Positions 52,116 to 59,478 of a stretch of DNA of 64,000 nt are shown in pieces (position 1 is the stretch's first letter; every line of letters begins with the position of its first letter). The position numbers were made by a program, and so were the translations under genes. This DNA is from Neocallimastix sp. 'constans'. Lineage: Eukaryota. The notes beneath the pieces are model-generated. The model made no database searches. It saw only the letters and a program-made list of their open reading frames with translations, and was not told the origin of the DNA. Where the stretch lies: the NCBI GenBank assembly GCA_050613775.1, contig JBODTK010000153.1, positions 186,001-250,000 on the forward strand. Direction: 5' to 3'.

Positions 52116-52571
52116 TTATTATTATTATTATTATTATTATTATTATTAATATTATTATTATTATTATTATTATTAATATTATTATTATTAATATTATTAT
52201 TATTATTATTAATATTATTATTATTATTATTATTATTATTATTATTATTATTATTATTATTATTATTATTATTATTATTATTATTATTATTATTATTATT
52301 ATTATTATTATTATTATTATTATTATTATTATTATTATTATTATTATTAATATTATTATTATTAATATTATTATTATTATTATTATTATTATTATTATTA
52401 TTATTATATTATTATTATTATTATTATTATTATTATTATTATTATTATTATTATTATTATTAATATTATTATTATTATTATTATTATTATTATTATTATT
52501 ATTATTATTATTATTATTATTATTATTATTATTATTATTATTATTATTATTATTATTATTATTATTATTAT
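52116..52571 (+). repeat. (ATT)n microsatellite, ~450 bp, left flank of Copia C
   Basis: Direct reading; occasional AAT interruptions. Confidence 0.97.
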
Positions 52572-52891
52572 TGTTGACTGCACTCATAATTTAACTATAT
52601 ATTTAATTTATTTATTTATAGTATTTATTTATATTTATGTGTATTTATTTATTTATATTTAATGATTACTTAAATGTATTATGATCTATCGTCTTGTATA
52701 AATCTATGTTAATTATCTTTTAATATTTATTTAATTAATTTTTAATTTATTTTATGTTATGGAAAACGCATGTTGTAACATGTGACTTTATTACTTATTT
52801 AAAGCTGAAAGATAGATCATACACTTATTTCCCTTGTATACCATATTCCATAAGGAATATTATTATAGATCTAAATTTAATAAAGCTAACA

Positions 52892-52906
52892 GATTAAGAG
52901 TCTCAG
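52892..52906 (+). promoter_or_regulatory. Primer binding site GATTAAGAGTCTCAG (half-tRNA-Lys type)
   Basis: Directly after the LTR terminal CA; identical to the Copia B PBS. Confidence 0.8.
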
Positions 52907-52966
52907 TTGACTCATATCATTTATTATTAAAAGTACTTAATTAATTCGCTTCACCGCTCCGAAATC

Positions 52967-55900: not shown

Positions 55901-56815
55901 GATATAAACCAGAAAAATAACCATAATTTAAATAAAGATGTTGAAATTAATTCTAAAATTAATCCTGAAATTAAAAATAAAAATAATTGTGAATTTAAAT
56001 TGAAATTCAATTTCAACAATGTTGACAAAAATAATTCTGAAAATAATTATTTGAATGAGATAAATAGAAATTTAGAAATAATAAATAAAAATTATAATAA
56101 AAAGTTTAGAAATAATACTAAGAATACCAATTTTAATTCTAACATTATTGAAAAATATAAACCAGAAGATCCTGCTTACACCGCCTCAACTTCCAGCAGG
56201 AACAAAGGAAAAGAAAAAATAACCGAATTTGAAAATTTTGATAAAAATAAAATATTTTTAAATAATGAAAAATCAAGCCAAAATTTACAGAATTTTACAA
56301 TAAATAATAATAATATGAAAAAAAATTTTAATAATAAAAATTTTTCAAAAAATGATGAAAAAATTCAAGAAAATCTATTGGCTGAAGCAAAATCACATTC
56401 ATATCATATCAAAAAATTTTCAAATAATTCAATAATTTCAAATAACACTAATGAATCACATATTACATATGACAACAATAATGATTCACATAAATCTATT
56501 AATAATTCAAATAAATCAATGAATATCAAAAATTTTCCAAAAAATGATCAAAATTTTATTAATAAAAATTTTTTATCGAAAAATAATAAATTAATTCAAC
56601 AAAATTCAAAATCCAGCGACTCTATGAAGAAAAACTATAATTTCTCCACTCCTACAATAGATATCAATAATATTCCTTCAGATAATAAAAATACGGTAAT
56701 GGAAAATCTTAAAAATATAACTCTTCCATATAATATTAATCAGAATTTACCTTTAATAACCGATTCTTCAACCAACCAAATTTCTCAAAAAAACAGACGA
56801 AATTTCACTTACTAA
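52967..56815 (+). CDS. gag-pol: Copia C gag-protease-integrase with Asn-rich tail
   Basis: CHICEVKGHSTRNC, WLYDTGA, WHRRLGH..CIEC, IIHSDISGP, KSDGGKEF, NGKAERIN. Confidence 0.95.
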   Translation: MQDFNLAKDQRLHGKSNFNEWKFLIDNAAKRQGIKEFMEVDVVGKLNDVGFDYNPNVNDVINKVITKLITKMLPQAPAEPIRNNNAEVNRNNNVDINTQLTNFFGNPLNHIRLVEEAERIDADMILMISKNVDDSVLREISRLNNGFRIMERLKSKYGNSNADMEYWLKRLRSIKARDRNQIIEKLELMKETFDDMEEQHVEITDKEKLKYLYNVLPDDYKNIIQINLNSDPNVYINNLKSFIYAKSYLENWEDNKTIEKDDPMDLDFISRGRRTSNSSKKNEHNNHNNKSSNSKKRGKQNGNQYNNNNKDNSNKDNNNKSYCHICEVKGHSTRNCIYNMKTKSNHNKGRQEKLQVKTTLNDHPKKSLHLISKISDPDSASSYDDNFDFEDARALIEKQEEINIDNKVKFSGLIEYVNDSFIIPKEITIPNKKEELYVNNINYYEENDKTSEWLYDTGAGEHITNDFNLLNNFIHCKIKLRCANGTMCSFEGYGTYECYINGIYLRLDKVLYSKSATKNLISGIELAKIGYRVIIDTDDYTRGRFNLWGPNNVYIGTYYSTNDNQFLVNTYKINKNFEEKDKNIMALNEVDEKSLEIWHRRLGHYYLENINKYLSLHQIKTPKCIECKVAKMSRKSHGGKTPKATKILEIIHSDISGPYNSSINNKKYFITFMDEFSRKVWIYTLKSKAEAPELIVEFFKYLNNQFEEYNIKIFKSDGGKEFKNKTVNKYCKENGIEKTYSPPGCPEVNGKAERINRTLRNSAKTLLYWAELSENFWNFAIKQACYIYNLIPHSGNKFLIPNEVFYNKKVELKHLKTFGCVCYYRDDTQHKSKFLPNAKKGVFLGFDDKKYSYIIMDIENNKIHYTNDVEFVEEEPSKHKYETSNYKDSYFSFMKDNNRKDMNPEDNIINEDNNINEDNNMNNENNFNGRNILNEENSLNENINNERTTNTEHKSNYIKNKHVNNISLNEENQEFDNKDINQKNNHNLNKDVEINSKINPEIKNKNNCEFKLKFNFNNVDKNNSENNYLNEINRNLEIINKNYNKKFRNNTKNTNFNSNIIEKYKPEDPAYTASTSSRNKGKEKITEFENFDKNKIFLNNEKSSQNLQNFTINNNNMKKNFNNKNFSKNDEKIQENLLAEAKSHSYHIKKFSNNSIISNNTNESHITYDNNNDSHKSINNSNKSMNIKNFPKNDQNFINKNFLSKNNKLIQQNSKSSDSMKKNYNFSTPTIDINNIPSDNKNTVMENLKNITLPYNINQNLPLITDSSTNQISQKNRRNFTY

Positions 56816-58592
56816 TAATAACGAAATAAATAATAAATTTAACAACAATAATATAGTAAATAAAGAAAATTATGCCCACAAATCTCTTATAGATGCATCA
56901 AGTGTTATTGATTTTAATAATGATGAAATTATGGATGACATTGTAGCCAATACAGAATATGGCAATATCCATAAAAGACCACTTAGTCCAAAATATAAAG
57001 AGACTGCACCTACTAATATTAGTTCTCGTAGAAAACTAGACCAAATCAACGACATTATTATTGCTTCTATATTTTGTCACATTCCTAATACATATGAAGA
57101 AGCAATAAACAGTGAAGACAAAAATAACTGGATTGAGGCTATTAATGATGAACTTAATAACCTTTATTCTAATAATATTATGACTTTTGTTAAAAATGTA
57201 CCTAAAAACAAGAACATCATTACCACAAAATGGGTTTTCAACACTAAACGTGATTCAAATAATAATATTTATAAATATAAAGCTCGTTTAGTTGCTCGTG
57301 GATTTAAACAAAAATGGGGAATCGATTATGAATTAACTTATTTTCCTACTCTAAACATTGATGGTCTTAAATTAATATTCGCTATTTCTGCTGCTCTTAA
57401 GTGGAATATTTTCCAGCTAGATATAAAGGCCGCTTACCTTAATGCTCCGCTTGATAAAGATATTTATACTACTATTCCTAAAGGCGATACGCGCTTTGGG
57501 CGGGGATATTGGAAGCTCAACAAAGCTTTGTATGGCCTTAAGCAATCTGGTAGACAATGGTATAATACCATTAGAAAATTCCTAATAAAAAATGAGTTCA
57601 TTCAAATTAAATCCGAACAATGTATTTTCAAATTTACAAAAAATAATATAACAAAATGCATTATCGGCTTATACGTGGACGACATGGTCATCGCTGGAGA
57701 AAACGAATACATTAAACAAATAATAAATAAAATAAAATCAAAATTTAAAATATCTAAATGTGATCCAATTGAATACATATTAGGAATTGAAGTAAAGAAA
57801 GAAAATAATTCATATATTATTTCACAAAAAAATTTTATAAATAATATGTTATATAAATTTAATATTGATAATACAAAGAAAAGAAAAACACCATGTACTG
57901 GTGATAATAAAATATCAGAAAACAATAAACCTTTCGATAAAACAATCTACAAAAGCGCAATAGGTTCCTTAATATACCTTTCGAAATGTACTAGACCTGA
58001 CATAGCTTTCGCTGTAAATAAAGCTTCAAGAAAATGTGAAAATCCAACTATATCGGATTGGAACAAAATAATAAATATTCTAAAATATATTAATAGTACC
58101 AAAGAATTTAAGATAGAATATAATGGAAAGGGGGAGCTTGTTGCATATACCGACTCTGACTTTGCCGGCTGTTTGGAAGATAGAAAATCTACCTCAGGAG
58201 GAATAATACTTATGGGAACAAGTCCGATATGCTGGTTGTCCAAGAAACAAACAAGTGTTGCTACGTCTACTGCTGAAGCAGAGTACATAAGCACTTCCGA
58301 AAATATAAAGAAAATATTATGGATTAGAAATATAATAAAAGAAATTTTAAACAAATGGATAACTGTTAAAATCTATACAGATAATCAAGCAAGTAAGAAA
58401 ATAATGGAGAACGGAGAAATAAATACAAAATTAAAGCATATAAGTGTAAGATATCATTTCAACAGGGACAATATTGCAAAGAAGAAAGTAAAATTAGAAT
58501 ATATTGATACTGAAAACATGCTAGCGGACATATTAACCAAGGACTCAAATGGACCAAAGATACAAAAATTTACAAACAACATTTTTATCTAA
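56790..58592 (+). CDS. pol: Copia C RT-RNase H (+1 frame; open back to the A7 run near 56787-56793)
   Basis: YKARLVARGF, QLDIKAAYL, LYVDDMV, YTDSDFAG, STAEAEY, MLADILTK. Confidence 0.93.
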   Translation, partial: KTDEISLTNNNEINNKFNNNNIVNKENYAHKSLIDASSVIDFNNDEIMDDIVANTEYGNIHKRPLSPKYKETAPTNISSRRKLDQINDIIIASIFCHIPNTYEEAINSEDKNNWIEAINDELNNLYSNNIMTFVKNVPKNKNIITTKWVFNTKRDSNNNIYKYKARLVARGFKQKWGIDYELTYFPTLNIDGLKLIFAISAALKWNIFQLDIKAAYLNAPLDKDIYTTIPKGDTRFGRGYWKLNKALYGLKQSGRQWYNTIRKFLIKNEFIQIKSEQCIFKFTKNNITKCIIGLYVDDMVIAGENEYIKQIINKIKSKFKISKCDPIEYILGIEVKKENNSYIISQKNFINNMLYKFNIDNTKKRKTPCTGDNKISENNKPFDKTIYKSAIGSLIYLSKCTRPDIAFAVNKASRKCENPTISDWNKIINILKYINSTKEFKIEYNGKGELVAYTDSDFAGCLEDRKSTSGGIILMGTSPICWLSKKQTSVATSTAEAEYISTSENIKKILWIRNIIKEILNKWITVKIYTDNQASKKIMENGEINTKLKHISVRYHFNRDNIAKKKVKLEYIDTENMLADILTKDSNGPKIQKFTNNIFI

Positions 58593-58932
58593 AAATATTA
58601 TTTGAGAGGGAGTGTTGACTGCACTCATAATTTAACTATATATTTAATTTATTTATTTATAGTATTTATTTATATTTATGTGTATTTATTTATTTATATT
58701 TAATGATTACTTAAATGTATTATGATCTATCGTCTTGTATAAATCTATGTTAATTATCTTTTAATATTTATTTAATTAATTTTTAATTTATTTTATGTTA
58801 TGGAAAACGCATGTTGTAACATGTGACTTTATTACTTATTTAAAGCTGAAAGATAGATCATACACTTATTTCCCTTGTATACCATATTCCATAAGGAATA
58901 TTATTATAGATCTAAATTTAATAAAGCTAACA

Positions 58933-59478
58933 ATTATTATTATTATTAATATTATTATTATTAATATTATTATTATTATTATTATTATTATTATTAATAT
59001 TATTATTATTATTATTATTATTATTATTATTATTATTATTATTATTATTATTATTATTATTATTATTATTATTATTATTATTATTATTATTATTATTATT
59101 ATTATTATTATTATTATTATTATTATTATTAATATTATTATTATTATTATTATTATTATTATTAATATTATTATTATTATTATTATTATTATTATTATTA
59201 TTAATATTATTATTATTATTATTATTATTATTAATATTATTATTATTATTATTATTATTAATATTATTATTATTAATATTATTATTATTATTATTATTAT
59301 TATTATTAATATTATTATTATTATTATTATTATTATTATTATTATTATTATTATTATTATTATTATTATTATTAATATTATTATTATTATTATTATTATT
59401 ATTAATATTATTATTATTATTATTATTATTATTATTATTATTATTATTATTATTATTATTATTATTATTATTATTATT
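58933..59478 (+). repeat. (ATT)n microsatellite, ~545 bp, right flank of Copia C
   Basis: Direct reading. Confidence 0.97.

Follow-up and report, generated by a model that had tools for sequence, protein, structure and literature searches.

The 64,000-nt stretch of Neocallimastix sp. ‘constans’ DNA analysed here (contig JBODTK010000153.1 of GenBank assembly GCA_050613775.1, positions 186,001 to 250,000 of the forward strand; hereafter, the window) has a GC content of 22% and carries two Ty1/copia long terminal repeat (LTR) retrotransposons, Copia C and Copia B, each of which lies within a microsatellite of the AAT/ATT class. Copia C interrupts an (ATT)n tract of about 1 kb in all, and Copia B splits an (AAT)n tract of about 185 bp on the opposite strand, within an older, decayed Copia element; the tract coordinates confirm both placements, which the initial annotation had reported. 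We read the two as young Ty1/copia elements and propose, with a probability of roughly 0.55, that the integrase of the C family favours a target site that bends easily, consists solely of A and T and has two-fold symmetry about a central ATWAT (W, A or T). The features of Copia C and its target tract are as follows.

52116-52571 (+): left half of the (ATT)n tract, whose final 5 bases (52567-52571) are the left copy, ATTAT, of the target-site duplication (TSD)
52572-58932 (+): whole element, with identical LTRs and a 5-bp TSD
52572-52891 (+): 5′ LTR, TG...CA, 320 bp
52892-52906 (+): primer-binding site (PBS), directly after CA, complementary to the tRNA-Lys(CTT) anticodon arm; half-tRNA type
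52967-56815 (+): open reading frame (ORF) for Gag, protease, integrase (HHCC, DDE core, SH3) and a long Asn-rich linker
56931-58592 (+): reverse transcriptase (RT; RVT_2) and RNase H (RH)
58604-58612 (+): polypurine tract (PPT)
58613-58932 (+): 3′ LTR, 320 bp
58933-59479 (+): right half of the (ATT)n tract, opening with the right TSD copy, ATTAT (58933-58937)

The two LTRs of Copia C show 0 differences over 320 bp. Both half-tracts are (ATT)n with single AAT interruptions, 8 in one and 12 in the other, and the patterns of these interruptions differ between the halves. Copia B and the element that carries it comprise the following features.

1997-7905 (-): whole Copia B
1913-1996 (+): left-hand (AAT)n tract, whose last bases (1992-1996) are the TSD copy ATAAT; read as poly-Asn in the frame of the host element
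1997-2247 (-): 3′ LTR, 251 bp, with the PPT at 2248-2257
2274-7635 (-): gag-pol, in three ORFs (7273-7635, 4942-7209 and 2274-4994)
7635-7649 (-): PBS, half-tRNA-Lys type
7650-7905 (-): 5′ LTR, 256 bp
7906-8011 (+): (AAT)n tract right of Copia B, starting with the TSD copy ATAAT (7906-7910)
1445-10774 (+): older, decayed host Copia, with a linker ORF (1445-1996 and 7906-8738), RT (8657-9670) and RH (about 10340-10747)

The LTRs of Copia B (256 versus 251 bp) differ by 1 substitution and one 5-bp indel. Compared with P0001, its twin in the database, Copia C shows a shift of reading frame near 56790, and this frame change, like the three-ORF state of Copia B, may reflect mutations or assembly errors. 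The host ORF stays in one frame across the Copia B site; a search for an uninterrupted version of its linker found none among 7997 candidates. The RT-RH region of the host is itself split at 9570-10330, where some 750 bp of highly AT-rich DNA separate RT from the TRPDI motif; this is a further insertion, without a defined TSD.

Copia B and Copia C are related yet diverged, with different LTRs, as the initial annotation held. Both have the Copia order gag–protease–integrase–RT–RH with an RVT_2-type RT, the Pfam domains Retrotran_gag_2, Pol_BBD, gag_pre-integrs, rve, SH3 and RVT_2, and the Ty1/copia hallmarks (TG...CA LTRs, PPT, PBS and 5-bp TSD). Their RT-RH regions are 64% identical, and the similarity between their LTRs is confined to low-complexity AT sequence (local score 28). 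In an RT tree of 109 rows (three from the window and 106 of the 120 hits; a quick version, supported by the Shimodaira–Hasegawa-like approximate likelihood-ratio test (SH-aLRT) only), the two share a 40-row clade (SH-aLRT 99), outside which the older host Copia falls. The labelled members of this clade are gut-fungal, and the RT relatives, at 60-89% identity, include Pecoramyces ruminatium proteins. B and C have the same PBS as an outgroup contig (L083). It lies immediately downstream of the CA, and a stretch of 15 nt is complementary to the anticodon arm of tRNA-Lys(ctt), in a match whose last position is nt 41; the tRNA compared is viral rather than the host’s own (from L244, the one of 56 viral loci that contained a tRNA). 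An anticodon-arm match ending near tRNA nt 40 characterizes the half-tRNA primer type, which is described for Copia elements in PMC6317226 (papers are cited by PubMed Central number, and statements about them refer to the excerpts available) and to which both B and C conform. The excerpt on the FunCo1 clade (PMC5445492) describes the same PBS, complementary to an internal part of tRNA-Lys, and the half-tRNA-Lys PBS is therefore already known and extends beyond the B/C clade.

Read in element orientation, the junctions of both B and C are ATTAT-TG...CA-ATTAT, with a 5-bp duplication; re-reading of the sequence confirmed the junctions first described. The two target tracts make up 1193 of 51,730 background bases (2.3%), and under uniform insertion both elements would land in them about 5 times in 10,000. 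This figure is no test, however, because the window was picked for these hits. The two window copies do have the same orientation, at chance level (p=0.5). It had also been claimed that the other TSD-defined insertions of the window lie outside microsatellites, which holds for the single insertion that can be so defined, a Gypsy element that serves as a control.

14938-21577 (-): young chromodomain Gypsy, TSD TTATT, flanked by ordinary AT-rich DNA and not by a microsatellite

Its LTRs are 99.9% identical, and its insertion is therefore likely to be recent. The element carries a single open frame of 1542 codons (15915-20540, minus strand) with a C-terminal chromodomain.

To extend the set of junctions, contigs of four public sequencing runs (X1-X4, of which X1 is an isolate run) were aligned to the Copia C 5′ LTR; the counts below apply among the loose ends listed. 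Behind the LTR end (52891), seven X1 contigs pool to (ATA)n with an agreement of 0.88 and two X3 contigs pool to (ATA)n with an agreement of 0.69; X2 and X4 yield only the collapsed PPT-LTR-PBS path, and the pooled X1 row at the 5′ end of the LTR reads as the element’s own PPT. In simulations of 5000 draws, with agreement computed by a formula of our own that is possibly not the one behind the values of 0.88 and 0.69, seven random window flanks gave a mean of 0.54 and a maximum of 0.69, seven non-tract flanks opening with ATWAT gave a mean of 0.72 and reached 0.88 in 0 of 5000 draws, and mixed AAT- and ATT-type flanks gave 0.86-0.95. The X1 agreement is thus beyond that of simulated non-tract flanks, indicating that the X1 flanks are repeats. 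X1 comprises 575.6 M letters of contigs, including contigs of depth 4, so that single-copy flanks should have assembled as well. Contigs of X2 and X3 also match Copia C through the PBS (window 52892-52905) and part from it at 52905, which suggests that a second family has this PBS and an LTR that ends in a similar way.

The pooled flanks bear on both phase and orientation. Window copy C reads CA-ATTAT(TAT)n, whereas the pooled X1 and X3 flanks read CA-ATAAT(AAT)n. As ATTAT and ATAAT are reverse complements, both junctions correspond to one staggered cut, into which the element was inserted in opposite directions. Of the fixed orientation and fixed phase that the initial annotation had attributed to these insertions, the former is thus refuted, and the latter is supported by the TSD ATTAT/ATAAT in the window copies and the X1 junction contigs. 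As judged from these junction sequences, the C-family tract insertions are supported as being of one phase and apparently of both orientations.

Known integrase rules offer a route from such a site preference to the observed pattern. The dyad of the intasome gives palindromic preferences, a WWW core is preferred by integrases that cut with a 5-bp stagger, and T is unfavourable at the position of strand transfer, according to the excerpt of PMC5053271; palindromic, mostly AT-rich target motifs are described as general among LTR elements (PMC3276498). An (ATT)n tract offers three 5-mers, ATTAT/ATAAT, TTATT/AATAA and TATTA/TAATA, among which ATTAT/ATAAT alone has no T at the transfer position on either strand; the rules in PMC5053271 therefore predict the observed phase and the free orientation. 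In the mechanism we propose, the integrase would cut the tract at ATTAT/ATAAT, as seen at both window copies, and other C-family LTR ends would enter (ATA)n by the same cut with the element reversed, as seen in the contigs. A symmetric intasome would, by the known rules, confer a palindromic preference and free orientation, with a WWW core and T disfavoured at strand transfer. An extended W-rich motif that recurs every 3 bp could then let long tracts capture most insertions and AT-rich look-alikes the rest, and the tracts, as mostly harmless landing sites, would favour the trait. How far such a motif concentrates in the two tracts depends on its length: ATWAT alone places 350 of 1465 window sites there (24%), ATWAT flanked on both sides by 10 A/T 317 of 436 (73%) and the 9-mer of the repeat 322 of 415 (78%). 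This concentration suggests that a local preference would become microsatellite homing with leakage.

The integrase itself looks conventional. Its predicted structure (mean predicted local distance difference test score 79) matches only ordinary retroviral integrases: residues 575-880 take up a standard fold of this type and add no further domain. An AT-hook motif was absent from B, C and the 38 clade proteins examined, the majority of which are partial. Its best Protein Data Bank sequence match is entry 7z0h, a 635-aa integrase, which we take to be that of Ty1. The residue three positions after the second catalytic Asp (K146 in the query) aligns with what is presumably the prototype foamy virus helix position equivalent to IN119; K or R is present at this position in 9 of 12 integrases of the B/C type and in 1 of 4 outgroup gut-fungal ones. 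On this alignment, the basic residue is a candidate lead, not a determinant.

Other copies and control junctions were sought in several collections. The 80 loci listed from the metagenome scan are all distant Copia elements (29-38% identity), and the viral contigs contained neither a relative nor a PBS match. Of 78 loci from the prokaryote-genome scan, three (L081, L083 and L084) look gut-fungal, but none of them shows a flank: in two the sequence stops within the 3′ LTR, and the third is a contig of the collapsed PPT-LTR-PBS type. These three Copia contigs are binned in metagenome-assembled genomes of methanogens, where they are likely contamination; L081, a member of the B/C clade (RT identity 67%), is richer in GC (31%), and its LTR begins TGC rather than TGT (after 3183). 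The PBS pattern has two matches in 314 archaeal genomes, one of them previously known. Searches of G001, G002 and G258 with the junction patterns and the LTR matched no more often than the controls, and eight stretches from these searches, inspected together with three other loci, contain no LTR junction. Among loci L001-L158, three distant Copia elements have both LTRs and a clean TSD, and 0 of 3 lie in a microsatellite; coming from other hosts, they are a weak control.

Several observations weigh against a preference set by the integrase motif. The first concerns position within the tract: the insertion points lie at 0.46 and 0.45 of tract length, and this near-central position of both insertions is not predicted by a purely local motif. 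It keeps alive two other explanations. One, which we consider highly unlikely, is that the tracts grew after insertion, the duplicated A/T-rich ends of a short ATWAT seed expanding on both sides by slippage until the element came to lie in the middle. The poly-Asn run in the host linker, at about 60 codons, is unusually long compared with the other pure tracts of the window (≤30 bp), as growth would have it, yet the host frame is continuous across the Copia B site as poly-Asn. The identical LTRs of Copia C, together with the differently patterned interruptions of its half-tracts, suggest that the tract is older than the insertion, and growth would in any case still require a starting sequence preference.

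The other explanation that the central position favours is that the integrase, via its C-terminal linker, binds a host protein on the tract, or that the tracts are nucleosome-poor, with the phase following from ordinary integrase rules. Ty1, Ty5 and Tal1 provide precedents (PMC5738225 and PMC11735389, in excerpt), and microsatellites have been described as landing pads of unusual, often nucleosome-free DNA (excerpt of PMC12477314). A basic KRPxS-type stretch precedes the RT in B, C, P0093, P0020, P0030 and P0075. However, this stretch may be a plain nuclear localization signal, the linker is Asn-rich and otherwise poorly conserved across the clade, the host factor is a hypothetical partner only, and the one B-family site outside a tract, found in X7, locally resembles the motif. 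We regard tethering or chromatin as an unlikely cause of the pattern.

That X7 site is the second point: one contig leaves the 5′ end of a B-family LTR into 141 letters of ordinary AT-rich DNA, with no PPT. The flank has a depth of 6.0, compared with 23-29 for the LTR end (contigs on the B 3′ LTR); X1 and X10 gave no loose end at the corresponding 5′ end. In element orientation it reads TTAT immediately before TG; A/T-rich as it is, it fits leakage of a motif-driven integrase to look-alike sites. The B-family tally is therefore one junction pair inside a tract and one junction outside, and that of the C family is the window copy and the pooled X1 flanks, within tracts. Third, the X1 contigs are graph paths rather than copies and may stem from few loci, and flank words common to many copies assemble more readily than unique ones. 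Fourth, two random flanks have a simulated mean agreement of 0.67, and the 0.69 of X3 is not higher; at least one X3 flank is (ATA)n, but the second contig may be an ordinary flank. Fifth, no junctions of sister clades or of other clade members were obtained as controls in these scans. Finally, the basic residue at the K146 position was rejected as a targeting determinant, as it also occurs in the unrelated P0130, P0090 and P0108.

These points raise the question of whether there is any real targeting, or just a weak A/T preference in an AAT-rich genome, with the share of tract copies raised by tolerance of such insertions, the way this window was picked and biases in the contigs. The B-family copy outside a tract and the preferential assembly of shared microsatellite words speak for this, as does the fact that an ATWAT preference alone would give 24% per insertion in the window and about 6% for two of two. 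It would have to accommodate, however, the pooled X1 3′ flank, whose agreement simulated non-tract flanks never reached, and an X1 5′-end row consisting of the element’s own PPT; three tract insertions (B, C and the reversed C-family copies) in one phase; and a young Gypsy of the same window outside tracts. We think it quite unlikely that targeting is absent.

Taking the integrase motif and tethering or chromatin together, it is probable that the C family prefers AAT tracts, and the preference is likely to be strong in C and looser in B. Of the microsatellite homing originally suggested, an AAT/ATT preference thus stands for the C family, on the X1 contigs and the simulation, whereas the X7 B flank speaks against a strict, lineage-wide form. 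A tentative further reading, which we hold as a possibility rather than an expectation, is that of a gut-fungal Copia clade whose integrases recognize the (AAT)n duplex itself and insert into such tracts in a single phase, with both orientations allowed. Were that so, the clade might conceivably represent an LTR-retrotransposon counterpart of the Dong long interspersed nuclear elements, with strictness tunable by family and a near-programmable DDE integrase. If true, a Copia integrase that concentrates on (AAT)n would show how local preferences can be sharpened into a safe-harbour strategy, and the contrast in strictness among close relatives (between C and B, and with sister clades) would provide a natural series in which to look for the responsible residues. 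In gut fungi, such elements would also be predicted to disrupt assemblies made from short reads, as well as microsatellite markers.

Elsewhere in the window, a GC-richer element occurs in two copies (21608-22098, plus strand, and 27665-28107, minus strand) that are 96.7% identical over 454 bp; it has a tRNA-like head (ARAGORN), the first part of which is missing in the second copy, and looks like a tRNA-derived short interspersed nuclear element. A (TTTTATA)n heptamer array of 765 bp occupies 42178-42943, with a higher-order period of 147 bp. Two ORFs of 424 and 341 codons (46228-48806, minus strand) have no Pfam hit above the cut-off, the first being weakly YfbR-like, and an Rfam scan of the window gave no match.

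Known systems provide several comparisons. Titles and abstract openings, a survey that leaves subscription journals and Repbase reports uncovered, contained no Copia element targeting (AAT)n and no target sites of gut-fungal Copia elements. Like B and C, elements of the FunCo1 clade have the PBS core directly after the 5′ LTR, the Copia domain order and TG...CA LTRs; however, FunCo1 is almost confined to Pezizomycotina, whereas B and C group with Pecoramyces-labelled proteins in an RT tree that holds no FunCo1 sequence, and the excerpt of PMC5445492 reports no microsatellite preference. The Copia integrases of Ty1, Ty5 and Tal1 are steered to a tolerated niche, as proposed for B and C, but are guided by RNA polymerase III, Sir4 or CENH3 chromatin rather than by a trinucleotide repeat (PMC5738225 and PMC11735389, in excerpt), and no tethering domain like theirs was found in B or C, which share only the short basic stretch. 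The initial annotation had held that known Copia targeting works by tethering and not by sequence; this is overstated, as palindromic AT-rich motifs are widespread (PMC3276498) and integrase–DNA contacts set local preference (PMC5053271). The palindromic motifs of LTR elements and retroviruses resemble the B/C site in being A/T-rich, with a WWW core, no T at the transfer position and free orientation (excerpts of PMC3276498 and PMC5053271). They are usually weak and not confined to one repeat class, unlike what is proposed for the C family, and barley BARE1 and Sabrina show almost no target motif (PMC5738225). Microsatellites beside human transposable elements are enriched 2.3-3.7-fold (PMC3547029). 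Sequence-specific integration is described as almost exclusive to non-LTR retrotransposons and Dada transposons (PMC3706591), and microsatellite targeting is known in non-LTR elements, where Dong targets TAA, the same repeat class as B and C, and the related Waldo, Mino, Kibi and Koshi use other microsatellites (PMC3812793, in excerpt). Whereas Dong inserts by an endonuclease cut followed by copying at the target, B and C are LTR elements with a DDE integrase, a 5-bp TSD and, in the C family, insertion in both orientations.

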